This document shows positions 47,798-62,390 of a DNA stretch of 64,000 bases, piece by piece. Positions within the stretch are counted from its first letter, which is position 1. Each line of letters opens with the position of its first letter. Both the position numbers and the translations under genes were made by a program. This DNA is from Alphaproteobacteria bacterium (GTDB lineage: Bacteria > Pseudomonadota > Alphaproteobacteria > JAUXUR01), in the NCBI GenBank assembly GCA_030680745.1, contig JAUXUR010000026.1, positions 1,899 through 65,898 on the forward strand. Reading direction: 5' to 3'. A model generated the notes under the pieces. It did not search any database. It worked only from the letters and a program-made list of their open reading frames with translations, and was not told the origin of the DNA.

Positions 47798-48384
47798 ATA
47801 TTCATAAATCAGAAGAATTTTCATTTTCGCCTGAAAATTTGAAACGTGCTCAAGAAATTATGACGCATTACCCTGAAGGACGTCAGCAAAGTGCGTTGCT
47901 TCCTTTATTGGATATAGCGCAACGTCAAAATGGTGGTTGGCTCTCGCGTTATGCACTTGATTATTTAGCGCAATTTTTGGGTATTGCAGCGATTCGTGTT
48001 TACGAAGTTGCTAGTTTTTATTCTATGTTTAATTTGAAGCCTGTTGGTCAACATTTAGTGCAAGTTTGTACGACGACACCTTGCTGGTTGCGTGGTTCTG
48101 ACTCGATTATGGATACATGTAAGTCAAAACTCGGTATTGGTTTGGGCGAAACAACGGCGGATAAACAATTTACCCTTGTAGAAGTTGAGTGTTTGGGTGC
48201 TTGCGTGAACGCACCACTAGTGCAAATCAACGATGATTATTACGAAGATTTAAATGCCGATCAAATGGCTAAAATTATCGATGATCTTAAAGCCGGTAAG
48301 AAAATAGAAATTGGGTCGCAATTGGGACGCAAAGGATCGGCGCCAGAGGGTGGACCACAAGTGTTATGCGAGATAGTGAAATGA
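47794..48384 (+). CDS. nuoE: NADH-quinone oxidoreductase subunit E
   Basis: 2Fe-2S ligand pattern [11 protein letters not shown]...[10 protein letters not shown]. Start overlaps the nuoD stop. Confidence 0.95.
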
Positions 48385-48825
48385 TACATGAATTATTTCA
48401 TCATTATTGCGACGCAGCAACTTTCCTTTTTCGTCATTGCGAGGCACGAAGTGACGCGGCAATCTTTTTATCGTTGACATCGCGTGCCCCTTCTTATCCG
48501 TCATTGCGAGGGACGAAGTCCCGCGGCAATCTCTCTGCAACAATTAGATCGCCACACCCCCTGAAGGGGGTTCGCGATGACGATGTTGGTAGAGCGGGGG
48601 GTCGCGATGGCGATGTGAGACGGACTCGTCGTTGCGAGGCACAAAGTGCCGTGGCAATCGTTTCTCTCTCGTCATTTCGAGCCAATTACATTACCTCGTC
48701 ATTGCGAGGGACGAAGTCCCGTGGCAATCTAATGTACGCAAACGATCATTTAAGATTGCCACGCAGCTTCGCTGCTCGCAATGACGAAGTGGTCAGGATA
48801 AATCAACAAATAAACGGGCTATCCC
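48385..48825. repeat. Cluster of REP-like hairpin units (35-37 bp, CGTCATTGCGAGG-GAC-GAA-GTC-CCGCGGCAATC) in both orientations, filling the nuoE-nuoF spacer
   Basis: Plus-orientation units at 48431-48465, 48498-48533, 48625-48660 and 48694-48730. Inverted units at 48546-48582 and 48753-48789. Partial units at 48401-48421, 48597-48613 and 48668-48683. Confidence 0.85.
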
Positions 48826-50103
48826 ATGCTTCAAGATAAAGATCGTATTTTTCAAAATCTGTATGGTCTCCATGATTGGCGCATAAAAGCGGCTCAATCG
48901 CGTGGTGCTTGGGTAGGCACGAAAGATCTTATCCTTAAAGGTCGTGATTGGATCATTGATGAAATGAAAAAATCGGGTCTACGTGGTCGGGGTGGCGCTG
49001 GTTTTCCAACAGGCATGAAATGGTCTTTTATGCCCAAAACAGAAGGTCCTAAACCCCATTATCTGGTTGTAAATGCAGATGAAAGTGAGCCTGGCACGTG
49101 TAAAGATCGTGATATTTTACGTCATGATCCGCATTTATTACTCGAGGGCTGTCTTTTAGCGGGTTTTGCGATGGGGGCACACACAGCCTATATTTATATT
49201 CGTGGTGAATTTTATAACGAGGCGAGTAATGTAGCGCAAGCCATTCAAGAAGCTTATGCCAATAATATGATTGGTAAAAATGCGTGTGGTTCTGGCTGGG
49301 ATTTCGATATTCGTTTGCATCGCGGGGCAGGGGCTTATATTTGTGGTGAAGAAACAGCTTTGCTTGAAAGTCTGGAAGGTAATAAAGGCCAACCGCGCAT
49401 GAAACCCCCATTTCCAGCGGGTGTTGGGCTTTATGGTTGCCCTACAACGATTAATAATGTTGAAACAATTGCGTCCGCACCCGATATTTTAAAACGTGGT
49501 GGTGCGTGGTTTTCTTCTATGGGACGACCTAATAATGTGGGCACCAAGCTTTTTTGTATCTCGGGCCATGTGAACAAACCTTGTAATGTTGAAGAAGAAA
49601 TGGGGATTCCGTTGAAGGAGCTCATTGAAAAACATGCAGGTGGTGTGCGCGGTGGCTGGGATAATTTATTGGCTATTATTCCCGGTGGGTCATCTGTGCC
49701 GCTTTTGCCAAAATCAATTTGCGATACCGTTTTGATGGATTTTGATGCGTTACGTGAAGTCAAATCAGGCCTTGGGACAGCTGGCGTTATCGTCATGGAT
49801 AAATCAACTGATCTTATCAAAGCGATTGCGCGTCTGTCGAAATTTTACAAACATGAAAGCTGTGGACAATGTACGCCTTGCCGTGAAGGGACAGGCTGGA
49901 TGTGGCGTGTCATGGAACGGATGGTTAAAGGTAATGCCCGCCTTGAAGAAATTGATGAATTGTTAGAGGTCACAACGCAGGTTGAAGGACATACAATTTG
50001 TGCTTTGGGTGATGCGGCCGCATGGCCTATACAGGGTTTAATGCGTCACTTTAGATATGTGGTTGAGGATCGAATCAAAAATGCAGGCTCAAAAGCTGCT
50101 TGA
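48826..50103 (+). CDS. nuoF: NADH-quinone oxidoreductase subunit F
   Basis: [13 protein letters not shown] (FMN/NADH site) and [12 protein letters not shown] (N3 cluster). Confidence 0.95.
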
Positions 50104-50133
50104 AATCAATAGGGTAATGATATTTTTTGGTCA

Positions 50134-50257
50134 GTTACCCAAACTATTTCGAAGTGTGGGTAGGAAAATGAGTGGTGAGGCCAACGGAGTGTATTCTTCA
50201 ATCACGCGCATGGCGAATCCCGAATTTGACGACCTCCACAATTTGAAAGAGGAAGGG
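50134..50257 (+). repeat. ~123-bp palindromic-ended element, copy 3 (nuoF-nuoG spacer)
   Basis: GTTACCCAAACTATTTCGAAGTGTGGGTAGGAAAATGAGTGGTGAG...GCGAATCCCGAATTTGACGACCTCCACAATTTGAAAGAGGAAGGG. It ends 4 nt before the nuoG ATG. Confidence 0.8.
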
Positions 50258-50261
50258 TAAT

Positions 50262-52340
50262 ATGCCTAAATTAACGATTGATGGAACAGAGATTGAGGTC
50301 CAAGCTGGAACGACAGTTTTTCAGGCTTGCCAACAAGCAGGTGTTGAGGTACCTCATTTTTGTTTTCATGAGCGATTAGCGATTGCTGGTAATTGCCGTA
50401 TGTGTTTGGTGGAGCTTGAAAAAGCGCCGAAACCGATTGCTTCTTGTGCTTATCCCACGGCCGAGGGAATGGTTATTAAAACGAATACACCGATGGTTGA
50501 AAAAGCGCGTAAAGGCGTTATGGAATTTTTACTTATTAATCATCCACTTGATTGTCCAATTTGTGACCAAGGTGGCGAATGCGATTTGCAAGATGAAGCC
50601 ATGGCCTATGGTAAAGATCGCAGTCGCTACGAAGAAAACCGCCGTGCTGTGACTGACAAATATATGGGGCCACTCGTTAAAACAACGATGACGCGTTGCA
50701 TTCATTGCACACGTTGTGTGCGATTTATTACGGACGTTGCTGGTGTTGAAGAATTGGGTGCCACAGGTCGTGGCGAAAATATGGAAATCACCACTTATGT
50801 TGAAAAAGCATTAAGTTCAGAATTATCTGGTAATATCATTGATTTATGTCCCGTGGGTGCATTGACGTCTAAACCTTATGAATTTAAAGCTCGTTCTTGG
50901 GAACTTAAAAAGACTGAATCGATCGATGTTTTTGACGCGTTAGGCACTAATATTTGTATCAATACACGTGGGCCTGAAGTTATGCGCATTTTGCCGCGTT
51001 TGAATGAAGATATTAATGAAGAATGGATGGCTGATAAAGCCCGCTTCGCCTATGATGGTCTTAAAAGACAACGTTTGGATCGTCCTTATATCCGTCAAAA
51101 TGGTAAATTAAAAGAATGTTCGTGGGATGCGGCATTACAATTTGTTGCAACAAAAATTGAAACGGCAAAACCCAATGAAATGGCGGCCATTGCAGGCGAT
51201 TTATGCGATGTTGAATCCATGTTTGCGCTGAAAGAATTGATGCATGCGTTGGATGTTCAAAATCTTGATTGCCGTCAAGATGCAGCTTTTATTCCACATG
51301 ATACGCGTGCGCATTATTTATTTAATACCTCAATTGCTGGTATAGAAAAAGCTGATATCTGTTTGATTATAGGCGCGAATCTTCGTTGGGAAGCACCGTT
51401 ACTCAATGCGCGTTTACGCAAAACCTATCTTCAATCGAAATTAAAAGTTGGGATGATTGGTGAAGAACTCGATTTGACTTACCCTTATACCCAAATCGGC
51501 GCAGGGCCTGAAGCTATTGATGCATTGCTAAATAATACACATTCTTTTGCTGCATTATTAAAAAATGCGAAGAATCCAATGATTATTATCGGGTCGGCAT
51601 TGATGACGCGTGCTGATGCACCTGCTTTGTTCCAAAAAATTCAACAACTTATTGATACTTATGGGATTATTCGTGACGATTGGAATGGGTATAATCTGCT
51701 CCATAAAGCAGCGTCCCGCGTCGGTGGGTTAGATATTGGTTTTCTACCAACGAAGAGTGCAATGGGGACGGAGCAAATTATTGAGGCTGCTCAAAAAGGA
51801 AGTTTAAAACTTCTCTATTTACTGGGTGCTGATGAAATACGTGTGAAACCACACCCCAATTGTTGTGTTGTGTATCAAGGACATCATGGCGATATGGGTG
51901 CTCAAATCGCTGATGTTATTTTACCGGGTGCTGCTTATTCTGAAAAATCAGGAATGTATGTGAATATTGAAGGTCGTGCACAACGCGCTGAAATGGCGTT
52001 GTTTCCACCCCATTTGGCAAAAGAAGATTGGAAGATTATTAGGGCGATTTCAGGCGCGATCGGCAAAGCATTGCCTTATAATTCGCTTGAAGAATTGCGT
52101 TATGAATTGACTGAAAAATATCCACATTTTGGTCATATTGACCAGCTCGCTCAAAATAAATGGCAAAAAATTGACATTGCGTCATCGTCAAAAATTTCGG
52201 ATAAACCATTTTTGAATGTTATTCAAAATTATTATATGACTGATGTTATTTCGCGCGCATCCCTGACTATGGCGAAATGTACAAAAGATATTCTGAATAT
52301 TCAAGAACAACACGAAAATAAAAAGGTGGCCAATGCTTGA
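50262..52340 (+). CDS. nuoG: NADH-quinone oxidoreductase subunit G
   Basis: N-terminal 2Fe-2S/4Fe-4S Cys patterns ([37 protein letters not shown]). 692 aa. Confidence 0.95.
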
Positions 52341-53385
52341 ATTATGGACTCATTTTATTGCACCTGGGCTACAAATTCTGCTCTATATCATGTGCATTAT
52401 TGTGCCACTCATTTTATCAGTTGCGTATTTAACGTATGTTGAACGTAAAGTCATAGGCGCCATGCAATTACGAAAAGGGCCCAATGTTGTTGGACCTTTT
52501 GGATTATTGCAGCCTTTCGCCGATGCTTTTAAGTTGTTGTTTAAAGAGCCTATTATTCCGTCAGGATCAAGCAAGTTCTTGTTTTTACTGGCGCCTGTTT
52601 TAACCTTTTCGCTGAGTTTTGCGGCCTGGGCTGTGATTCCTTTTGAATCGGGCGTGGTTCTTGCGAATATTAATGTAGGTATCCTTTATCTTTTTGCGCT
52701 TTCATCCTTGGGCGTTTATGGCGTGATTATTGCCGGTTGGGCGAGTAATTCACGTTATGCTTTTTTAGGTGCGCTTCGTTCTGCAGCCCAAATGGTGTCT
52801 TATGAGGTCTCAATTGGTTTTGTGTTGGTCACTGTTTTATTGCTTTCTGGATCGCTCAATTTATCAGATGTGGTCATGGCGCAAAAAGGCCTATGGTTTT
52901 GTGTGCCTTTATTTCCTATGTTCGTCATTTTTATTGTGTCAGCACTTGCTGAAACGAATCGTTCGCCTTTTGATTTAGCGGAAGGTGAATCTGAAATTGT
53001 GGCAGGGTATTTCGTTGAATATTCATCCATGAGCTTTGCGCTGTTTTACTTGGGTGAATATGCCAATATGATCTTAATGAGCGCTATGGCCGCGTTATTA
53101 TTCTTAGGCGGTTGGTTGCCACCTATTGATATGGTGCCCTTTACATGGATTCCAGGCCCTATTTGGTTTTGTTTAAAAATCGCTTTTGTGCTTTTCATCT
53201 TTTTGTGGGTGAGGGCGACGTTCCCCCGTTATCGTTATGATCAATTGATGCGTTTGGGTTGGAAAGTCTTTTTACCTTTTTCGCTTGTTTGGGTTATTTT
53301 GACGGCTGGCTTTGTCGTTGTTAAAAATGAATTAAATTCAAGTGCTCCTAAAGTTCACGCCTTATCATCGAAGGAAACGTCATGA
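52333..53385 (+). CDS. nuoH: NADH-quinone oxidoreductase subunit H
   Basis: Polytopic membrane protein with ERK..G.MQ.R.GPN and AETNR.PFDL.E.ESE motifs. Overlaps the nuoG stop. Confidence 0.95.
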
Positions 53386-53870
53386 AAAAATTGACGCGTA
53401 CACTTAAAAGTTTTTTGTTGGTTGAGCTCGCTTCAGGGCTTTGGCTGACACTGAAATATATGTTTAAGAAAAAAGTGACATTGAATTATCCTTTTGAAAA
53501 AGGACCCTTAAGCCCAAGATTTCGGGGTGAGCACGCATTAAGACGTTATGAAAATGGCGAGGAACGCTGTATTGCGTGTAAATTATGCGAAGCCGCCTGT
53601 CCCGCGCAAGCCATCACCATTGAAGCTGAAGCACGTGAAGATGGTAGCCGTCGTACAACGCGTTATGACATTGATATGACCAAATGTATTTATTGTGGCT
53701 ATTGCCAGGAAGCATGCCCCGTGGACGCCATTGTGCAAGGTCCTAATTTTGAATTTACAGTCGAAACGCGTGAAGAGCTTTTTTATGATAAGGATAAATT
53801 ACTCTCCAATGGTGATCGTTGGGAAGCTGAAATTCAACGTAATTTAGAGCAGGATGCGAAGTATAGGTAA
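53382..53870 (+). CDS. nuoI: NADH-quinone oxidoreductase subunit I
   Basis: Two CxxCxxCxxxCP ferredoxin motifs ([24 protein letters not shown]). ATGA overlap with nuoH. Confidence 0.95.
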
Positions 53871-53990
53871 TAAGCGTTGGCAATATACTGTATGCTTGCG
53901 TTATTCTAATTGTTTGTAACGTGAATTTGGAAATTTAAAAGCATCTACATTCAAGCACAACCATTTGAATTAAAAAGAAAAATAAAGAGG

Positions 53991-54113
53991 TCCGTCGTTG
54001 CGAACCCCCCACTTTTTTTTTAGGGGGGGGTGTGGCAATCCAGTCCTAAAATCAACTTTTATAAGGCTATTTTCTGGATTGCTTCTTCGCCTTCAGCTCA
54101 TCGCAACGACGGA
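53991..54113. repeat. Inverted pair of REP-like units downstream of nuoI
   Basis: TCCGTCGTTGCGAACCCCCCAC-T9-AGGGGGGGTGTGGCAATCCAG (53991-54042) faces CTGGATTGCTTCTTCGCCTTCAGCTCATCGCAACGACGGA (54074-54113). Same family as the nuoE-nuoF cluster. Confidence 0.75.
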
Positions 54114-54281
54114 AACCTTAGGTTTCCTAATGCAGGCATCATCGAGTTCGCCTTTATAATAAATGGTTCATGACTTTGAAAAAAGACCATTGTATATTCA
54201 AAGTTTCTTGATTATAACGCATTCTTAACATATTTTGAGCACTCAAAGCTCAAATTTGCAATAATTTTTTGGAAAATTACA

Positions 54282-56051
54282 ATGAAACAAATTATTGTTA
54301 TGCTGTTTTTTCTTATCGCAGGATTAGAAATTAGAAATAACCAAGTCTATGCAGCAGGAAATGAACAAGAGTCAGCAATTGTTGCTATAAATGAAGACCC
54401 CCAATCTGAATTAGTAGTGGCAGAAAAAACCCCAATCGATAAACTTTCGAGTATTTTTCGTATATCACAAAATACGAGACCATTTTTAACACCCACTGTT
54501 TCCAAAGATGAAATCTTTGAAATTTATCATGCAATTGCTAATTCATTTCAATATTTAACAACAGAAGATAAACCCTGGGATATACCGATTCCCGAATTAT
54601 ATTATTTAGGTATAGAGCTTGTTTATACAATAACTGCAAAAGATTACCGTAAAAGAGAGGCAATTCAAAAAGCAAAAAATTTCTTGGAAACGGCAAAAAA
54701 TGGGAATTTAATTACCTATCGTTGGTTTTTGAAATTTTCAGGGCTTTGTGCAGCGATTGCGACCATAGGCCGTCAGAAGATCGATCTTGAATCTGATTCA
54801 AATAATATTTATTCATATCAACAAGCTTTGATGAATGTATTTGTCGCATCGAATTACGACCCACAAGCTTATTTTGATGCAATTGATACAATTGGATCAC
54901 CAATCACCCATGAAATTGGGTCGCTCAATGCGATGGCTGAACTTTTTCCTGAAATAGTGATTCTACCTTATCCTTTTGATTTAAGCGATACTGATATTTT
55001 TTTGAATTTTCCAGGTAAAACAAAACATGTATGGTTTGCAGGTGTTGCAAATAAAGAAACTACAGCAGATGGTCAGAGAAAGGATCCTCATGATTTTTTC
55101 TATCATGACATACTTCATTTAGCTATTATAAGACAAGCTTTATCAACAAATAATATTGCTTTTTTTTATGCGCAATATTTACAATATGTAAAAGATTTTT
55201 CTTACGATTATTTTGAAAAAAATCAGCAAGAACGTGTTCAACTTTTTTTTGAAGCGTTAGAATTGACCCAAAATTTTTTGGAGGAATTTCTTAAAGATCC
55301 TAATCAGGGCGAAGATACAAAAAGAATGTATAGTTTTTTTAGCTTTGCAATTTTTCATGAATTTTCTATGAGTTTAATTGGCCGATTGCATTTAATAATA
55401 AATCCTGATGCTCTTTTGAATATTTTTAAAATAGCTATTAATCCTATGCTTTCTTCTGATTATTATGGACCGCTTCTTCCTGAAAAAATTAAAACAGCGT
55501 TAAAATTAGAAATTTTTCAACCTGTTGAGACATTGGCTGTAAATTTTTTGAATGATCTGCTTTCTTATACTAATGCACATCATTTTAGTTTATTTGAGGA
55601 GCTTAAAAAATATACTAAAAGGTCGTTTTTACCATTTCCTTTAATCAATTATTATGCTGTAGAAAATTTTATTGTTTGGAATCCATCAATTTATTATACC
55701 GACTATTTTGAAAAAACTGTTAAAAAACATTGTCAAGAAAATAATATATCTATTGGTGAAATGGATGCATTTACTTTTTTTTATAATCGTTTAAGTGAGT
55801 TTGATTCTGGTAATAAAATTCCAAGGACGATGGCATTTTTTTACAATTTTAAAGGAAATCCTTTCAAATTAGATTGGGAGCCAATCATTTATTCAATGGA
55901 TGTTTTTATACATAAGGATTTATCTTTTACTAAATCAAAAGAAGAGATTGCTCAAAAGTTCAAAAATGATTTGCCAGCAAGACAAGATGGTCATCCATTG
56001 CCCGTTTTGCGTTATTATGGCGCTGATATGGAACCCGTTATTGTTGAGTAG
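54282..56051 (+). CDS. Hypothetical exported 589-aa protein (orphan cargo gene)
   Basis: Signal peptide MKQIIVMLFFLIAGLEIRNNQVYA, AT-rich, no family recognised. Contains a His/Asp-rich motif DPHDFFYHDILH. Confidence 0.7.
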   Translation: MKQIIVMLFFLIAGLEIRNNQVYAAGNEQESAIVAINEDPQSELVVAEKTPIDKLSSIFRISQNTRPFLTPTVSKDEIFEIYHAIANSFQYLTTEDKPWDIPIPELYYLGIELVYTITAKDYRKREAIQKAKNFLETAKNGNLITYRWFLKFSGLCAAIATIGRQKIDLESDSNNIYSYQQALMNVFVASNYDPQAYFDAIDTIGSPITHEIGSLNAMAELFPEIVILPYPFDLSDTDIFLNFPGKTKHVWFAGVANKETTADGQRKDPHDFFYHDILHLAIIRQALSTNNIAFFYAQYLQYVKDFSYDYFEKNQQERVQLFFEALELTQNFLEEFLKDPNQGEDTKRMYSFFSFAIFHEFSMSLIGRLHLIINPDALLNIFKIAINPMLSSDYYGPLLPEKIKTALKLEIFQPVETLAVNFLNDLLSYTNAHHFSLFEELKKYTKRSFLPFPLINYYAVENFIVWNPSIYYTDYFEKTVKKHCQENNISIGEMDAFTFFYNRLSEFDSGNKIPRTMAFFYNFKGNPFKLDWEPIIYSMDVFIHKDLSFTKSKEEIAQKFKNDLPARQDGHPLPVLRYYGADMEPVIVE

Positions 56052-56065
56052 GCGCATTAGGTGAG

Positions 56066-56198
56066 GTGGTTCAACTTTAAATTCATTGTTGAAACACGTG
56101 AAGATCTTTTCTATGATAAGGATAAATTATTATCCAATGGCGATCGTTGGGAAGCTGAAATTCAACGTAATTTAGAACAAGATACTAAGTATAGTTAG
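56066..56198 (+). pseudogene. nuoI: Displaced copy of the last ~130 nt of nuoI (fragment 1)
   Basis: Aligns to 53739-53870. Translation ...[35 protein letters not shown] versus nuoI ...[35 protein letters not shown]. No 5' part and no start codon. Confidence 0.85.
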
Positions 56199-56302
56199 AT
56201 ATTTATTTAAATGTAGGGTATTTTTATTGACTTAATTTTAAATATAATATAAATTTCATTTTTCGTAAAGTATGTTTATGTAAACAAATATGGAGATTAA
56301 AA

Positions 56303-56602
56303 ATGTTAAAATTAATAAGATTGTCGTTTTTACTTATGGTGTTGTTTTCAACATCTAGTCAAGCTGACGTTTTTTGCTATGTTAAATATAATTCAACATT
56401 TTATGGTGTTCAGGTGGATGAATCAGAGAAGACTATTGCTGATTTAAAGGTGAAAATAGCTGAACGTTTAGGTATAAATGTTGAAGATTTTGATCTTTGT
56501 GATAATGGCAGTACTACTCGCCCTGACAAAATGTTCAATGACAATGATTCAATGCATGATATTAGGCTAGCTACTAGAATAACAGTAAGACTAAGGAAAT
56601 AA
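56303..56602 (+). CDS. Small secreted protein with a ubiquitin-like (beta-grasp) sequence pattern
   Basis: Signal peptide [21 protein letters not shown] and GGAGA RBS. The 77-aa mature part aligns by eye with ubiquitin (YVK / [19 protein letters not shown] / ITVRLRK versus FVK / [22 protein letters not shown] / LHLVLRLRGG). Confidence 0.6.
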
Positions 56603-56690
56603 TCTTTCAATTGCAATGTTGACGTTTAAGTCCGTCCTTTTAAGGGGGGCGGACAAACAAAACATAAATAAGATAAATAAATATCAGCTG

Positions 56691-56941
56691 ATTGAAGCCG
56701 AAGCACGTGAAGACGTTTGTCATCGTACAACGTGTTATGGCATTGATATGACAAAATGTATTTATTGTAGCTATTGCCAAGAAGCTTGTTCCGTTGATGC
56801 CATTGTTGAAGGTCCAAATTTGAATTTATGCTTGAAACCCCCGAAGTGTTTTTTTATGATAAGCATAAATTATTATCCAATGGCGATCGCTGGGAAGCTG
56901 AAATTCACCATAATTTAGAACAGAATGCGAAGTATAAATAG
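56691..56941 (+). pseudogene. nuoI: Displaced, frameshifted copy of the last ~240 nt of nuoI (fragment 2)
   Basis: Aligns to 53629-53870. [43 protein letters not shown]..., then indels. The tail ...GDRWEAEI is recoverable only in another frame. Ends at TAG, as the parent ends at TAA. Confidence 0.85.
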
Positions 56942-57002
56942 TTCTTTTAAATTGTTGAATTTATGTCTAGAATAAAGTACTAAAATCTAAGGGTTGTAAA
57001 AA

Positions 57003-57308
57003 ATGCATAAAAAAACTATAGTAAATACAACAAAATCTCCTATGAAATATCGCGGAAATATTGTTTTATTGGTGTTGTTTTTGATTTTGTGGTTTCCAAT
57101 AGCCTTGGTGCTTCTTTTTAAAAATGCATATATTCCCAAGAAAAATAAAATTATTTATTTATCATATCATGGAAATTATATTTGGCTCTTTTTTTGGGCT
57201 ATTTTTTTCTTTCCAATTGCAATGATTTTAATTTTTATTATTGGATTTGATCAAGTGGAAGAGGAATTTTATGAGTCTGTTGAACATACTACTGTTCATA
57301 GAGAGTAA
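57003..57308 (+). CDS. Small membrane protein (two TM helices)
   Basis: 101 aa with two long hydrophobic segments (IVLLVLFLILWFPIALVLLF, IWLFFWAIFFFPIAMILIFIIGF). No family recognised. Confidence 0.5.
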   Translation: MHKKTIVNTTKSPMKYRGNIVLLVLFLILWFPIALVLLFKNAYIPKKNKIIYLSYHGNYIWLFFWAIFFFPIAMILIFIIGFDQVEEEFYESVEHTTVHRE

Positions 57309-57316
57309 ATTTAAAA

Positions 57317-58183
57317 TTAATATATATTACAAATTTCGGTAAATTTTTTAAAATAAAGTGGATCGCAGTCATCTTCTAATGCCCAAGCCCAGGCTAAAAT
57401 TGCTTGAACAAAATTCCATTGGGCAATGCGTTGAGAAGGTGTTTTAAGAATATGTGCAAAAACCTGGATGCGTTTTTCAATAATTTCTTTGGCATTACGT
57501 ATCGTTAATAAATCAGGAATGGGGTTGCGGATAAAAGCTGCAATCTCGTATGCAGGGTCACCAATGATGCCTTTGGGATCAATTGCTATCCAATCATTGG
57601 AATGAGACAAAATATTATCATGGTGTAAATCACCATGAAGCAAAACGTTTTTGGGGGATGTTTCTAAAAGATGATTCTTTAAATCACGTGCTTTTTGTAA
57701 ATATTCGGAGGGGATATTGAGATCTTGATCTAAAAGAGCAAGCCAATCTGAAATATGTGGGAATTGATTTTCAATCGGCAAAGGCGCTTTGTGGAGTTTT
57801 GTGATTAGATCTGATGCAATATAAATAGCTTCTTCATCACGAAGATTAAAATAGTTTTTGAGTGATTGTCCAGGTATTGCACGTTCTATAAGTAAAGCAT
57901 CATCATTTTCGGCATAAAATTTAACACAAGAATGTCCGTTAAAAGCCCTAAGAGCATCTGCTTCTTTTCTTAAAGATTCAATATCAGGACTTACTTTTAA
58001 AACGACTGGTTTTGTATTTTGAACTGCCGAGAGGACATAATTGTAAGTGAGGTTTTCAAAGGGTTTAAGTTGCGTTAGGTGCCAATCTTTAGCATATTCT
58101 TGAATAAGCTTTGGTAAAGAATGAAGCCAGTTTTTACCTTTATCGCCATAAAGATTGATTATGTTTTGGTTGAAGTGTTGCAT
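57317..58183 (-). CDS. Aminoglycoside/hydroxyurea-resistance kinase family protein (APH(6)/StrB-like)
   Basis: Kinase-like catalytic loop LLHGDLHHDNIL, then IAIDPKGIIGDPAYEIA. Overall length and layout resemble StrB. Confidence 0.75.
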   Translation of the reverse strand: MQHFNQNIINLYGDKGKNWLHSLPKLIQEYAKDWHLTQLKPFENLTYNYVLSAVQNTKPVVLKVSPDIESLRKEADALRAFNGHSCVKFYAENDDALLIERAIPGQSLKNYFNLRDEEAIYIASDLITKLHKAPLPIENQFPHISDWLALLDQDLNIPSEYLQKARDLKNHLLETSPKNVLLHGDLHHDNILSHSNDWIAIDPKGIIGDPAYEIAAFIRNPIPDLLTIRNAKEIIEKRIQVFAHILKTPSQRIAQWNFVQAILAWAWALEDDCDPLYFKKFTEICNIY

Positions 58184-58248
58184 TGGGCAATTCTAATATA
58201 AAATACACAATATTTAAATACTCACGCAACACTAACCAATTGTAAAAA

Positions 58249-58524
58249 TTAATCGGTTTGGCGCATTCCTTGCTTGGTATTTTCTTTAAAAACATCACTA
58301 TCTTTAATTTGATTTAATTCGACATGTGATGTTTCCATTGAGCTCATTATTTCATCTATATCGGCGCGCATTTTTTGAAGTTTTATTTGCATGTCTTTCA
58401 TTTTCTGACATGCTGTATCCATTCTTGTTTTTATATTGTGATCTTTTGTGTCTGCATTCACCTGAGTAGCAGAAATGAAAATTATTGAAGATAGAAATAA
58501 AGTTTTTTTAAAGGTAGTTTTCAT
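58249..58524 (-). CDS. Small secreted coiled-coil protein
   Basis: Signal peptide MKTTFKKTLFLSSIIFISATQVNA. 91 aa, no family recognised. Confidence 0.5.
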   Translation of the reverse strand: MKTTFKKTLFLSSIIFISATQVNADTKDHNIKTRMDTACQKMKDMQIKLQKMRADIDEIMSSMETSHVELNQIKDSDVFKENTKQGMRQTD

Positions 58525-58894
58525 TTTTTTTCCTTACTAAACATCTTGACTAAGCTTTCATATTGATCCCTAGTCAATTGATTTCCCTTAATTATAGAGC
58601 AACATATCTGCATATTAATTGCAATAAAAATGTGTTTTAAATAGGTGAATTGCATTTCATTGAAATTTGGTGTGTATCAAAAAAGAAACAAGCTTTGCTG
58701 AGGTTGATTTTATTGGATTTTTTATAGCAATAAATATTGGAATGATTAATTTTGGATAAAAATTTTCCAAATGCTAGGCGTTTGCCTGGATCTACGTATG
58801 AAGCTTTGCTTCAACGAGTCCAGGAAAACAAAGGAGTGTGGACAAATTTCTAGGATGAAAAAAAATTGTTCCGTAGATTGTAGACAATTAAATG

Positions 58895-59308
58895 CTACTG
58901 AACTTTAAGACCATCAGCATCGTGAACTTCAATTTTTTCAATGACATCAGAATTTTTGCTTGCATAGACTACACGCGCTGTAATATATCCACGATTGTTT
59001 GATAAGGCACCTTCTACAGGTGTGCCTGCAACTTCCCAAAGCCCTAAAGTCATAACATCAAGTGCACCATGGCCTGCGGCACGAACATAGTTAAAGCCAC
59101 TTTTGCGTGCTTTTGCACGATAGGTTTCAGTATATTTACCATTTTCTTCTGTATGTTTATCAAGAATTTCCATACCTAGTGAAAGATAGCATCCTCTGGA
59201 ATGACATTTTCTGACGTCGCTAACTGCTACGCCGTCGTTTGATGCTGCTTTATAAACTGAACAGCTGCTTATAAAAAGGGCCAATGCTACATAACTTAGC
59301 TTGTACAT
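58895..59308 (-). CDS. Putative lipoprotein
   Basis: Lipobox-like LALFISSC at the N-terminus. 137 aa, no family recognised. Confidence 0.6.
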   Translation of the reverse strand: MYKLSYVALALFISSCSVYKAASNDGVAVSDVRKCHSRGCYLSLGMEILDKHTEENGKYTETYRAKARKSGFNYVRAAGHGALDVMTLGLWEVAGTPVEGALSNNRGYITARVVYASKNSDVIEKIEVHDADGLKVQ

Positions 59309-59489
59309 TTACTATGTTCCATTTGTTAACAATAATTTAATATCAGGAGTCTACACTTTTATAAAAAATATGCAATATGTGATTAAGCAGGCTATTGCTA
59401 TGTATTGATTTTGTTCTAAAAAATATTTAATATTGGTTAATCGTTTTCTCTTGTTTTAAAAGAATATATTTTTTTAATATTAAAAATGG

Positions 59490-59595
59490 TATAGTCGATA
59501 GACATTGGAAGTATACATCGTCACGCCTTATGCATGTATATACGTACACACTTCGCTTGTTGTTCCTTGTCTACTTCTCAAGTCTATCGACTATA
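59490..59595 (+). repeat. ~106-bp palindromic-ended element, copy 1 (upstream of the DUF2157 gene)
   Basis: TATAGTCGATAGAC...GTCTATCGACTATA perfect 14-bp terminal inverted repeats. Roughly 85-90% identical by eye to 61760-61865. Confidence 0.8.
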
Positions 59596-59635
59596 ATTTA
59601 ATATTGTTGATCTATTCATTCGTTGAGAGGCGAAA

Positions 59636-60664
59636 ATGGTAAAAGAAAAAAAATCTGTAGATCTTACTAAAATTAAAATTCACCGTTCACTTATTGAAAA
59701 ATTATTTGCACAAAATATAATTTCAACTGAAGTGCGCACAACGAGCTTACAGCTTATATATCCCCATCAAAATTGGGGATTATGGGCACAGAGATTGTTT
59801 TTAATTTTAGGTTTTTCTCTTATTTTATCGAGTATTATTTTCTTTTTCGCTTTTAATTGGGCAATTATACCAAATTTTGCAAAATTAGGGGTAATTGAAG
59901 CCGGTTTTTTTGTGGCTATTATTTGTAGCTTTTGTTTTGATCTTAAGAAGATTTTAGGACAAATAAGTCTATTGGGCGCTTCGGTTTTTGTGGGGGCTTT
60001 TTTAGCAGTGTTTGGTCAAATCTATCAAACAGGCGCTGATGCTTATCAGATTTTTCTTATATGGTCACTCCTTATTTTACCGTTCGTCTTTATTTCAACC
60101 AATTCTTTTCATTGGTTTCTTTGGTTTGTGGTGTCGTCACTTGCTATTTATTTTTACTGCAACCAAGTTTTTATGATTAATTTAATATTTGATAATGTGA
60201 CTTGGGTATTGCTTGCTCTTTTTTCGTCAGCGCTTCTTGTTGTAAAAGCCTATTATAGGTCGCTCAAAAAAATATGGATGCCAGCGCCTTGGACGACGTC
60301 GTTGCTTGTATTTGCAACGCTTTCATATTTGCTTGTGCCATCTCTTCATTACGTTTTTGAAATTGGGAAAGAGCCCATAGGTTTTTTTGTACAATTAGGG
60401 ACTGGGTTATCACTTATTATTCACGCAATATTTTATTTGTATTTTAGGTTTAAAAAACCCGCTATTGTGCCCTTATGTTTTACCTATTTGTCTTTATGTA
60501 TCATTGTTGAAGCCATTATAGCGCGTGTTATTTTATGGTCAGGAAATGAATTGGGTGCAATTGGTTATTTGATTGTTCTTATTTTTACGCTTGGATTATT
60601 TAGTTTTGCAACGATGCGTTTGCACCACTTCTACAAGAAAATGAGGATTAAATATGATGCATAG
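59636..60664 (+). CDS. DUF2157-type polytopic membrane protein
   Basis: Short soluble N-terminus then about 9 TM segments. The FFFAFNW motif after the first TM is typical of DUF2157. GAGAGG RBS. Confidence 0.7.
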   Translation: MVKEKKSVDLTKIKIHRSLIEKLFAQNIISTEVRTTSLQLIYPHQNWGLWAQRLFLILGFSLILSSIIFFFAFNWAIIPNFAKLGVIEAGFFVAIICSFCFDLKKILGQISLLGASVFVGAFLAVFGQIYQTGADAYQIFLIWSLLILPFVFISTNSFHWFLWFVVSSLAIYFYCNQVFMINLIFDNVTWVLLALFSSALLVVKAYYRSLKKIWMPAPWTTSLLVFATLSYLLVPSLHYVFEIGKEPIGFFVQLGTGLSLIIHAIFYLYFRFKKPAIVPLCFTYLSLCIIVEAIIARVILWSGNELGAIGYLIVLIFTLGLFSFATMRLHHFYKKMRIKYDA

Positions 60665-61871
60665 AATGAATGGGCAAGATTATTTAGATTATTTGCATGA
60701 TCGTCAATTGGTTGATGAACGTGCGTTAGGTACCATAAAAAAATACATGATTAATAATGCGAAGCAACCTGGGCTGCCATTTTATTTCCATCTTTTAGCC
60801 GGTGTTGGAACATTGATTTCGACATTTTGTCTTTACTCAGTTTTAAATCTTTTTGGATTTATAAGTTTTTTCAATACAGAAGGTTTTCTAGGTTGGGGGA
60901 TTTCTTTTATCGTTTTGGCTATATTGATTTATTTTCAATTTAAAAGCAATAAAAGCCTTGTACAGCAAAGTTTTTTGATTCAGTTTTCTTTTGCATTGAT
61001 GGTCGTCGGAAAAGTTTTTATTATAATTTACACCCTTTATAATCTTCAAAATTACTTTAAATTTCATAGTACTTGGGTCTATTCAGCAATTCTTTTTTTG
61101 TTGACGGGACTTACTTTTTTTCTTTACAAGGTAACAGCAGAACGCTTTTTGGGGTGTTTTTTTCTTTTTCTTTCCATTATTTACAATATTACTGAAACAC
61201 CATTTTTTCAGCCAGATAATAATCTTGTCTTAAATATTTACATGTTGCTGCAAGTTGTTTTGGCGAGTGTTTTATTTACACATTCGTTTGTCAAAAACGC
61301 TTTTATTACTATCGCTTATGCGCTTGTTTTGTCTGTTGCTGTGGAAATTGTTTTTTTTGATTTAACAATTGCCCCGTGGATTCTTGGTAGAGATTTTGGG
61401 TTAATATATGTGCAATATGGTTTTGCGCTTTTACTAATTTGGTCTATGTTTTGGGCATCTGGAGCACCTAATATCCGCGCATGTTTTAAAAACATCCATT
61501 TGATTTTGGCATCGTTACTTGTAGTTTTGTTGTCATATTTGACAGCACCCGGTATTATTTTTTCAATCTTTTTGATTGTTCTGGGATATGCATGTCAGCG
61601 GCGGTTTTTATGGTTATTGGGTGTATTTCTAATGCCAATTTACCTTTTCTTTTATTATTACGATTTGCAAGTTACCCTTCTTGAAAAATCAATTATTATG
61701 TTCTCGAGCGGCCTTATTCTTTTGATTGGTGCTGCATATATTCGTATTTGTAAATTAGATATAGCCAATAGTCATTGGAAGGATACATCGTCACGCCTTG
61801 CTCATGTAGACAAGAATACACTTCACTTGTTGTTCCTTGTCTACTTCTCAAGTCTATCGACTATAATATAA
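60654..61871 (+). CDS. DUF4401-type polytopic membrane protein (C-terminal 37 codons supplied by a repeat element)
   Basis: Overlaps the preceding gene by 11 nt. Multi-TM. Positioned between DUF2157 and GDYXXLXY genes as in the conserved trio. Confidence 0.65.
   Translation: MMHRMNGQDYLDYLHDRQLVDERALGTIKKYMINNAKQPGLPFYFHLLAGVGTLISTFCLYSVLNLFGFISFFNTEGFLGWGISFIVLAILIYFQFKSNKSLVQQSFLIQFSFALMVVGKVFIIIYTLYNLQNYFKFHSTWVYSAILFLLTGLTFFLYKVTAERFLGCFFLFLSIIYNITETPFFQPDNNLVLNIYMLLQVVLASVLFTHSFVKNAFITIAYALVLSVAVEIVFFDLTIAPWILGRDFGLIYVQYGFALLLIWSMFWASGAPNIRACFKNIHLILASLLVVLLSYLTAPGIIFSIFLIVLGYACQRRFLWLLGVFLMPIYLFFYYYDLQVTLLEKSIIMFSSGLILLIGAAYIRICKLDIANSHWKDTSSRLAHVDKNTLHLLFLVYFSSLSTII
61760..61865 (+). 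repeat. ~106-bp palindromic-ended element, copy 2 (inside the 3' end of the DUF4401 ORF)
   Basis: TATAGCCAATAGTCATTGGAAGGATACATCGTCACGCCTTG...CTTCTCAAGTCTATCGACTATA. The ORF stop at 61869-61871 lies 4 nt beyond the element. Confidence 0.8.
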
Positions 61872-61886
61872 GTTAGGGAGACAAAC

Positions 61887-62390
61887 ATGAAAAAAATAAT
61901 TCTCCTTTTAGCGACCATTACGATTTTTGTTTTCTTTAACTACAATATTTACGTAAAGGAAAATATTATTGAGAATGGTGAAAAAATATTTCTTGAATTG
62001 CGTCCGGTTGATCCACGATCTTTTATGCAAGGTGATTATATGGCTTTGCGTTTTAAGATTGAAGAAGATGCTCGTTTCAATGCGAATGAATCTGTGCCGC
62101 TAAAAGGTAAAATTGAGGTGACTATTAATGAACAAAAAATAGGACATTTTGATAAATTGTATATAGGCGGCGATTTAAATGCGAATCAACGTTTGTTTGA
62201 TTATCGACTTACCAATTTAGGTATAAATATTATCCCGGATTCTTTTATGTTCCAGGAAGGACATGCATCTTTTTATGAAAAAGCGAAATACGGCGTTTTT
62301 AAGTTTATTGGACATGAATATTTATTAACGGGACTCGCCGATGAACATTTAAATGAAATTAAACCATTGGCTGAGACTTTGGTAAAATAG
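61887..62390 (+). CDS. GDYXXLXY-domain protein
   Basis: N-terminal TM anchor and the literal motif DPRSFMQGDYMALRF (GDYxxLxF/Y). GGGAG RBS. Confidence 0.75.
   Translation: MKKIILLLATITIFVFFNYNIYVKENIIENGEKIFLELRPVDPRSFMQGDYMALRFKIEEDARFNANESVPLKGKIEVTINEQKIGHFDKLYIGGDLNANQRLFDYRLTNLGINIIPDSFMFQEGHASFYEKAKYGVFKFIGHEYLLTGLADEHLNEIKPLAETLVK

Follow-up and report, generated by a model that had tools for sequence, protein, structure and literature searches.

Can a small gene in an alphaproteobacterial genome encode an exported relative of ubiquitin, and if so, what would such a protein do? This question is raised by an open reading frame (ORF) near the end of a 64,000-nucleotide stretch of contig JAUXUR010000026.1 (assembly GCA_030680745.1, Alphaproteobacteria bacterium), and this whole stretch is referred to here as the window. 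A reading made earlier from the sequence alone had described the ORF, at positions 56303-56602, as a secreted ubiquitin-like (UBL) protein of an intracellular bacterium. We consider it probable, with some doubt left, that the ORF is a genuine and lineage-restricted gene and that it encodes a small protein with a ubiquitin fold that is predicted to be exported. The two are called the UBL gene and the UBL protein in the following. To our knowledge, exported bacterial ubiquitins comprise essentially one studied case, BfUbb of Bacteroides fragilis, which is a non-enzymatic antibacterial toxin.

Predicted signal peptide and fold of the UBL protein

The N terminus of the UBL protein was found to carry the three regions of a Sec signal peptide, which was assigned by rule from the sequence. 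The n-region has positive charges at K3 and R6, the hydrophobic core has 9 residues and is too short to act as a membrane anchor, and S-Q-A occupies positions -3 to -1, a lipobox cysteine being absent. The cut is predicted after SQA21, in agreement with the cleavage at SSQA/DV that the sequence-only reading had suggested. The mature part had also been described as 77 amino acids (aa) long and equal in length to ubiquitin, which has to be corrected, as it has 78 aa and ubiquitin 76 aa.

Structure prediction of the UBL protein with AlphaFold2 from the single sequence gave a model with the topology beta-beta-alpha-beta-beta-alpha-beta, a predicted local distance difference test score (pLDDT) of 77.6 and a predicted template modelling (TM) score of 0.64. 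Its ortholog, described below, was modelled with a two-sequence alignment and showed the same topology (pLDDT 76.4). When the UBL model was compared with the PDB using Foldseek, ubiquitin came first, with TM scores of 0.74-0.80 (0.75 for the best match), an rmsd of about 2.5 A and an identity to ubiquitin of 20-24% (about 22%). The matches to the ortholog model were led by ubiquitin variants, NEDD8, PB1 domains and ISG15. VIA-align against 48,161 representative chains had the UBL domain of Dsk2 as the best match to the UBL model (Z 10.7), the matches between Z 10.7 and 9 being Dsk2, OASL, BAG1, ISG15, Hub1 and ubiquitin, and the top 50 matches were all ubiquitin-type folds (UBL, FERM, RA). The ESM Atlas holds a model of its own for the UBL protein (pLDDT 0.61), and the structural neighbours of this model were ubiquitin families; a shape search of the Atlas with the AlphaFold2 model gave the same result. 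Among these neighbours were bacterial clusters with PF00240 and an IPTL-CTERM sorting tag, and 97-aa 'putative ubiquitin' clusters from Bacteroidota. With good but not complete confidence, the models point to a ubiquitin-type beta-grasp as the fold of the mature domain. A disulfide between C25 and C66 was considered and rejected, as the ortholog conserves neither of the two residues and by the alignment to ubiquitin the two strands would not be adjacent.

At the sequence level, the best two of 24,736 Pfam models for the UBL protein both belonged to the ubiquitin clan, namely UN_NPL4 (E 0.065) and ubiquitin, PF00240 (E 0.092), and the protein was below the curated cut-offs of both. The comparison with PF00240, which had been proposed as a check, did return a match, over residues 36-65, but its 13.0 bits stayed under the gathering threshold of 25.4 bits. 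In a six-frame scan of the genome with PF00240 the UBL gene obtained 12.6 bits. The ortholog matched only UN_NPL4 in Pfam (E 0.015). A phmmer search of 1.8 billion cluster representatives found, besides the protein itself, a 1378-aa protein of 16 UBL repeats at E 9e-8, a value that is summed over six repeats and thereby inflated. The second phmmer match, a repetitive helical protein of 429 aa (P0004), was discounted as repetitive. Sequence matches in the PDB were weak (E 0.016-1) and consisted of ubiquitin, designed ubiquitin variants, viral ubiquitin, the parkin UBL and ISG15, with the leucine-rich repeat proteins Toll and a Toll chimera as exceptions. With a profile of the two orthologs, viral ubiquitin and ISG15 led the PDB matches and unrelated proteins appeared among the weaker rows. 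When this profile was aligned by hhalign to 11 of the UBL repeats, a probability of 79% and a P value of 1.6e-5 were obtained over 37 columns, the query profile consisting of 2 sequences and the match spanning strand 2, helix 1 and strand 3, that is, half of the domain. Searches of PHROGs, NCBIfam and PADLOC with the UBL protein gave nothing meaningful. The resemblance of the UBL protein to ubiquitin exceeds chance, because the top two Pfam models are of the ubiquitin clan, the hhalign P value is 1.6e-5 and independent structure predictions show the ubiquitin fold. We regard it as most probable that the UBL domain is related to the ubiquitin family, from which it has diverged very far. A beta-grasp fold was predicted and a profile signal was obtained with PF00240 and hhalign, and the earlier idea of a ubiquitin-like domain behind a signal peptide survived, the fold predictions and the profile similarity being in agreement.

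The same fold could have come from a native bacterial beta-grasp protein, such as a ThiS/MoaD carrier, a Bil/Bub conjugation protein or a periplasmic SLBB-like module, with a likeness to ubiquitin that is convergent. Beta-grasp folds are of ancient origin and occur widely among bacteria, and an identity to ubiquitin of about 22% with no curated family threshold reached would fit such an origin. However, the top structural matches were all ubiquitin or eukaryote-type proteins, with no ThiS or MoaD among the top 50 rows of Foldseek or VIA-align for the UBL model, and the sequence signal was specific to the ubiquitin clan. In addition, the protein lacks a C-terminal glycine, a Pfam scan of the neighbours of the UBL gene revealed no E1, E2, JAB, ThiF or MoeB, and PADLOC, NCBIfam and PHROGs had no match. 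A signal peptide is also incompatible with a cytoplasmic role as a sulfur carrier or in conjugation. We regard a native bacterial origin as very improbable.

Individual residues were compared with ubiquitin using the tool alignments to viral ubiquitin and to the UBL repeats, and ubiquitin numbering follows textbook knowledge. The ubiquitin motifs that had been listed earlier were all present in the UBL protein (YVK in strand 1, the helix 1 motif, VEDFDL and the C-terminal VRLRK), and HMMER aligned this stretch to viral ubiquitin as far as 'vlrl' of strand 5. The ortholog has GVQY in place of YVK. Equivalents of K27, K29, L43, G47, D58 and R72-L73-R74 are kept. At the positions aligned with the L8/I44/H68/V70 patch of ubiquitin, N/C/R/T was found in the UBL protein and N/Y/G/I in the ortholog, and the equivalents of K48 and K63 are not lysine in the UBL protein and are not conserved. 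Binding of UIM or UBA domains appears doubtful, because the residues of the Ile44 patch are not kept in this alignment, and recognition of the R-L-R tail may still be possible. Both orthologs stop directly after VRLRK, with no Gly-Gly. The tail being RLRK and not RLRGG, the protein is, as judged from its C terminus, not conjugatable, as the sequence-only reading had supposed for the canonical pathway.

A single ortholog and its divergence

The sole ortholog was P0002, a protein of 100 aa from the metagenome-assembled genome (MAG) GCA_030696155.1 ('Alphaproteobacteria bacterium'), which is 65% identical overall and 56% identical in the mature domain. Among the genomes compared, no other belongs to the same genus and family, the remaining relatives being of the same class only. 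A word-indexed search of 5.8 billion proteins found nothing beyond this ortholog, and no additional one was found by phmmer in the 1.8 billion representatives. Six-frame searches of 40 relatives for the UBL gene gave chance-level matches only, and a scan of GTDB genome contigs and JGI metagenome contigs revealed no new homologue. The gene was not found in a third related MAG, GCA_030683575.1, where the contig ends within a homologue of p589, the 589-aa exported orphan protein that is encoded next to the UBL gene in the window. No paralogues were detected in the own genome. Two candidates for paralogues were rejected, one on contig C53 that is ribosomal protein L23 and one on contig C56 that has signal-peptide similarity only. 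In the sampled alphaproteobacterial genomes PF00240 was above its cut-off in 4/401, always within open frames of 405-596 aa, and therefore a small stand-alone exported UBL protein is rare in Alphaproteobacteria. The PF00240 domains in those four genomes (65-108 bits; loci L020-L023 of genomes G345, G342, G199 and G217) possibly belong to ubiquitin-domain fusion proteins.

The two genomes that carry the UBL gene were compared over 16 kb and form a mosaic in which blocks of 100% identity alternate with blocks of 80-86% identity, with the UBL gene in a divergent block. Between positions 48309-61900 of the window and the sister locus (L003, GCA_030696155.1), blocks of 300-600 bp at 100% identity were seen, for example at 55227-55826 and 56922-57221, and the blocks of 80-86% identity include 54233-54726 and 55927-56721. 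The synonymous divergence (dS) was about 0.4-0.5 in nuoG/H/I, as compared to 0.05-0.09 downstream. The mosaic suggests that the lineages recombine frequently, or that the MAG assemblies are mixtures of populations.

Around the UBL gene, a conserved block extends from the promoter-proximal and ribosome-binding region to within 3 nucleotides (nt) of the signal cleavage site (Table 1). Both nucleotide changes in the signal peptide are synonymous, and divergence starts at the first mature codon. Within the mature domain the clustering of the differences is significant (dispersion test, p 0.0008), and a 10-residue block in helix 1, a 13-residue block and VRLRK are left intact. In two tiny segments, strands 1-2 and residues 81-95, the ratio of non-synonymous (dN) to synonymous divergence (omega) was about 3 and about 1.5, respectively. 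The only indel between the orthologs is an in-frame one of 3 nt, so that their lengths differ by one codon, and both frames are open. For p589 an omega of 0.31 with an excess of third-position changes was found in its own divergent block, which is ordinary purifying selection, and its last 69 codons, lying within the divergent block of the UBL gene, had an omega of 0.25.

Several observations weigh against a functional exported ubiquitin homologue. No sequence score attains a curated family threshold (13 bits as compared to 25.4 for PF00240), one model out of five was confident in each AlphaFold2 run with the rest at pLDDT 49-62, and the Atlas model is mediocre (pLDDT 0.61). The mature domain as a whole looks neutral, with a dN of 0.28, a dS of 0.27 and thus an omega of about 1, differences distributed 20/15/19 over the three codon positions, and a number of amino-acid changes equal to that in a neutral simulation; the chance of staying stop-free under drift is 0.17. 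Because the two genomes are a mosaic of identical and divergent blocks, a tract of recombination and not selection could account for the conserved signal block. The whole evolutionary pattern rests on two sequences. With regard to export, no VirB4 of a type IV secretion system and no GspL of a type II secretion system was found in the 99%-complete genome, and no route across the outer membrane was detected.

These data are compatible with a gene that drifts without a function, either an acquired ubiquitin-like gene in decay or a by-product of insertion, in which the conserved 5' block would be a recent recombination tract. Such an orphan would be expected to show the neutral omega, the even codon positions and the neutral amount of amino-acid change that we observed. 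The divergence of its mature part (77.4% identity) equals or exceeds that of the non-coding DNA in the surrounding divergent block (79-88% identical), and the gene sits in a recombination mosaic between pseudogene fragments and is carried by two genomes only. Against drift, both copies have stayed open with a sole indel that is in frame, which has a joint neutral chance of roughly 0.06, and the conserved block ends at most 3 nt from the signal cleavage site. The clustered differences spare the helix 1, strand 3 and KMFND blocks, and both diverged sequences are still predicted to adopt the same fold. We consider a functionless orphan unlikely. A constant leader in front of a diversifying or loosely constrained binding domain seems favoured over drift because of the in-frame indel, the open frames, the boundary at the cleavage site and the retained foldability in the two sequences.

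The nuoI fragments and the surrounding genes

The sequence-only reading had placed the UBL gene between two displaced fragments of nuoI and had called it mobile cargo. Both fragments were confirmed (Table 1). Fragment A was 84% identical to nuoI by tblastn and 86% by blastn, and it is found at the same place in the sister genome; fragment B was 85% identical by blastn and is also present there. The direct repeats of the nuoI 3' end that bracket the gene are in line with mobile cargo, while the lack of a recombinase, an ordinary GC content and the lack of an empty site are not. No integrase, transposase or recombinase domain was detected in the genes neighbouring the UBL gene. Its GC content of 31.3% is within the normal spread of the genome (mean 34.6%, sd 5.8% for 300-nt windows), and because it is ordinary for the genome, base composition was rejected as an uninformative test of foreign origin. 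In the only close relative this site is filled in the same way, so that there is no empty site for comparison, and the arrangement is old enough that both sister genomes have it.

On this layout, we find it plausible that the UBL gene is mobile cargo. The nuoI fragments would be the trace of two successive Campbell-type or site-specific insertions at the nuoI 3' end, and in such a model the older one would have brought the UBL unit (56199-56690, about 490 bp) and the younger one the p589 unit. Modular insertion units are supported because p589 occurs elsewhere without the UBL gene and nuoI is followed by p589 in the third related MAG. In another metagenome contig the genes behind a p589 homologue are unrelated, and both fragment A and the UBL gene are missing there. 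It was also observed that nuoJ lies on another contig (C52:1746-2201) than nuoA-I; the nuo operon is apparently split directly behind nuoI, the same place at which fragments of the nuoI 3' end have accumulated.

Table 1. Features of the UBL locus and the two TLC translocase genes, with the identity between the two genomes that carry the UBL gene.
Feature	Position	Strand	Identity between genomes	Basis or remark
p589, 589-aa exported orphan	54282-56051			Next to the UBL gene
Displaced nuoI 3' fragment A, left flank	56061-56198	+	88.4%	nuoI nt 364-488, NuoI aa 118-162
Distal upstream spacer			79.1%	
Candidate weak sigma-70-like site, TTGACT-17-TAAATT, 5' of UBL gene	56227-56255	+		9/12 consensus positions
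35 nt including the ribosome-binding site			100% (35/35)	
Ribosome-binding site GGAG	56292-56295	+		7 nt 5' of ATG, read from sequence
UBL gene, 99-aa ORF	56303-56602	+		ORF listing and translation
Sec (signal peptidase I) signal peptide, residues 1-21	56303-56365	+	61/63 nt, 21/21 aa, dN = 0	Predicted cleavage after A21
Mature 78-aa ubiquitin-fold (beta-grasp) domain, end VRLRK without Gly-Gly	56366-56599	+	77.4% nt	Predicted models, sequence
UBL-gene stop codon TAA	56600-56602	+		Read from sequence
Downstream spacer			95.3%	
Displaced nuoI 3' fragment B, right flank, frame disrupted	56691-56938	+	98.4%	nuoI nt 238-484
TLC ATP/ADP translocases (PF03219), two full-length	C83:50915-52399 and C48:6755-8224			

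Upstream of the UBL gene, the sigma-70-like site in Table 1 is listed as a candidate promoter only, since 21 such sites were counted around the gene as compared to 18.7 in shuffled sequence, which is no enrichment. A scan of 55900-57100 with Rfam found no RNA family. A 68-aa antisense ORF (56410-56616, minus strand) overlaps the UBL gene; it is unsupported and was taken as spurious.

The gene order is identical in both genomes: nuoE-F-G-H-I is followed by p589, the UBL gene and the genes for a 101-aa membrane protein and an APH kinase, and the agreement continues beyond them. In Pfam, NCBIfam and the Atlas, p589 had no assignment. It belongs to a small and lineage-restricted family, with an 896-aa paralogue of 48% identity on contig C2 (G000:C2:2390-5080) and homologues of 51-74% identity in three other metagenomic contigs or MAGs, one of them directly after nuoI. 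As a functional clue to the UBL gene p589 was rejected: its homologues elsewhere lack a following UBL gene, and nothing was found that would link the two genes in function. The sister genome has about 2.3 kb of extra DNA (L003 10700-13045) with a 781-aa ORF that has no Pfam match; it sits between the genes for a 91-aa and a 137-aa protein and is absent from the window at 58667-58783.

Lifestyle, proposed action and relation to known systems

The source genome has 2.5 Mb, a GC content of 34.6% and a completeness of 99%. TLC ATP/ADP translocases are a hallmark of obligate intracellular bacteria, and two full-length ones were found in this genome (Table 1) as compared to 0/14 control genomes. Judging by these genes, the organism is probably intracellular and energy-parasitic, and the intracellular bacterium of the sequence-only reading is plausible. 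A Sec signal alone delivers a protein only to the periplasm, and this is the destination of the UBL protein that its sequence would demonstrate; a release by vesicles, which has been proposed for BfUbb, may be possible. Three secretins were found. Judged by the sizes of neighbouring ORFs only, the contexts resemble a type IV pilus and a Tad system, and the third secretin is a TPR-secretin fusion. The fusion protein (605 aa; C28:3937-5757, L014) has N-terminal TPR and a C-terminal secretin domain and is encoded alone among housekeeping genes.

Based on these data we propose the following action of the UBL protein, for which we infer the actual export, any function and the mode of binding. The preprotein would be translated from its own ribosome-binding site and moved across the inner membrane by the Sec translocon, and signal peptidase I would cut it after SQA21. 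The 78-aa ubiquitin-type beta-grasp domain would thereby be freed into the periplasm, and it may reach the outside via vesicles or leakage. It would act through non-covalent binding to a partner protein, in the way of BfUbb; non-covalent action is proposed because the RLRK end and a compartment without E1 enzymes or ATP leave no conjugation. Its surface would be a diversifying or loosely constrained binding surface, given a constant leader and a mature domain that changes in clustered patches near the neutral rate.

Alternatively, the UBL protein may leave the bacterium inside a eukaryotic host cell and disturb the ubiquitin, autophagy or deubiquitinase machinery as a mimic of ubiquitin. The two TLC translocases, found in none of the 14 control genomes, would agree with such a host, and the predicted fold is nearest to eukaryote-type ubiquitin and UBLs. 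The R-L-R tail, which in ubiquitin is recognised by E1 enzymes and deubiquitinases, is kept in both orthologs, and a fast change of the mature domain would suit an arms race with a host. Human E1 is bound by BfUbb, which also acts as an inhibitor of ubiquitination in vitro (PMC3352274). However, the Sec signal reaches the periplasm only, no GspL-type type II or VirB4 type IV secretion system was found, and the secretins are of pilus, Tad or TPR-fusion type. The equivalents of the L8/I44/H68/V70 patch, K48 and K63 also appear from the alignment to be unconserved and to differ between the orthologs. A host-directed mimic is in our view unlikely, and interference with host ubiquitin or autophagy, as suggested by the sequence-only reading, is somewhat disfavoured on the present sequence data.

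As a tentative and rather doubtful possibility, we suggest that a deep-branching, energy-parasitic and TLC-bearing alphaproteobacterial symbiont captured a eukaryotic ubiquitin, added a Sec leader to it and now diversifies its surface in an arms race, the product being a non-conjugatable binder of a host or competitor protein. If capture and arms race were true, they would be without precedent in an intracellular alphaproteobacterium, and a mode of evolution with a constant leader and a hypervariable ubiquitin would have been found that is not described for BfUbb. If the gene is functional, the exported-ubiquitin design would also be present in a probably intracellular alphaproteobacterium, and it could diverge until it is recognisable by fold-level and profile-level methods only. 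More exported UBLs may then hide among the 'orphan' secreted proteins of symbionts. The frozen leader next to a freely changing domain offers a handle on which surface is important and what it binds to. If the gene is drifting instead, it would be a snapshot of a captured eukaryote-like gene in decay.

The closest known relative in kind is BfUbb. Together with BoUbb it forms the secreted ubiquitin homologues (BUbb) of B. fragilis and B. ovatus, with the structure PDB 8hm3 (PMC3352274, PMC5705921, PMC11467351). BfUbb has a signal sequence and no Gly-Gly, and its processed form is found in culture supernatants (PMC3352274, PMC11467351). BfUbb and BoUbb kill sibling strains by binding a periplasmic peptidyl-prolyl isomerase after import through ButCD (PMC3352274, PMC11467351). 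Like the UBL protein, BUbb are small, stand-alone proteins in which one ubiquitin-fold domain (about 76-78 aa, no Gly-Gly) comes behind a signal peptidase I signal, and their genes are likewise patchy among close relatives. In sequence they differ strongly. BfUbb is 63% identical to human ubiquitin and a clear PF00240 member, whereas the UBL protein is at about 22% and under the family threshold; the similarity of BUbb to eukaryotic and viral ubiquitin is about 63-76%, as compared to 20-24% for the UBL protein. The BfUbb chain 8hm3_A was at Foldseek rank 46 for the UBL model, with 16% identity. BfUbb has a C-terminal cysteine, and the UBL protein ends in RLRK with a lysine. BfUbb comes from free-living gut Bacteroidota and has a known target and importer, whereas the UBL protein comes from a TLC-bearing alphaproteobacterial MAG. 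The mature domain of the UBL protein evolves at about the neutral rate, unlike that of BfUbb.

A further possible role is that of a BfUbb-type interbacterial toxin, which would be released, enter the periplasm of competing close relatives and block an essential envelope protein there. The architecture is shared (signal peptidase I signal, ubiquitin fold, no Gly-Gly), and secreted antagonistic proteins typically combine a leader that stays constant with a mature part that is hypervariable. The gene also varies among close relatives, as it was not found in GCA_030683575.1, where the contig ends in the p589 homologue. On the other hand, competitors are few for an organism that bears TLC translocases and is probably intracellular, neither a SusCD-like import system nor a target is known here, and only the fold is shared with BfUbb (8hm3_A at rank 46, 16% identity), the C-terminal cysteine being absent. 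We find such a toxin quite improbable.

An export signal joined to a ubiquitin domain is also found in the IPTL-CTERM PF00240 clusters of Pseudomonadota and in the 97-aa 'putative ubiquitin' clusters of Bacteroidota. Those exported ubiquitins are near-canonical and mostly have a C-terminal anchor or sorting domain, whereas the UBL protein is anchorless and far more diverged. The ThiS/MoaD and Bil/Bub systems have the beta-grasp fold in common with the UBL protein, but they are cytoplasmic, end in Gly or Gly-Gly and have E1-like, E2-like or JAB genes adjacent, and none of these features is found for the UBL protein. With eukaryotic ubiquitin and UBLs (PF00240; Dsk2, ISG15, NEDD8, Hub1/UBL5) it shares the predicted fold and topology (TM 0.75, Z about 10), the T-I-x-x-[LV]-K-x-K-[IV] motif of helix 1, the G-I-x-x-[DE] turn, the equivalents of Leu43, Gly47, Leu56 and Asp58 and the R-L-R tail. 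In contrast to them it has a signal peptide, no Gly-Gly and no conserved Ile44 patch, Lys48 or Lys63. Taken together, the UBL protein appears to be an unusually diverged, exported and non-conjugatable homologue of ubiquitin, which by sequence would be a member of neither PF00240 nor BUbb.

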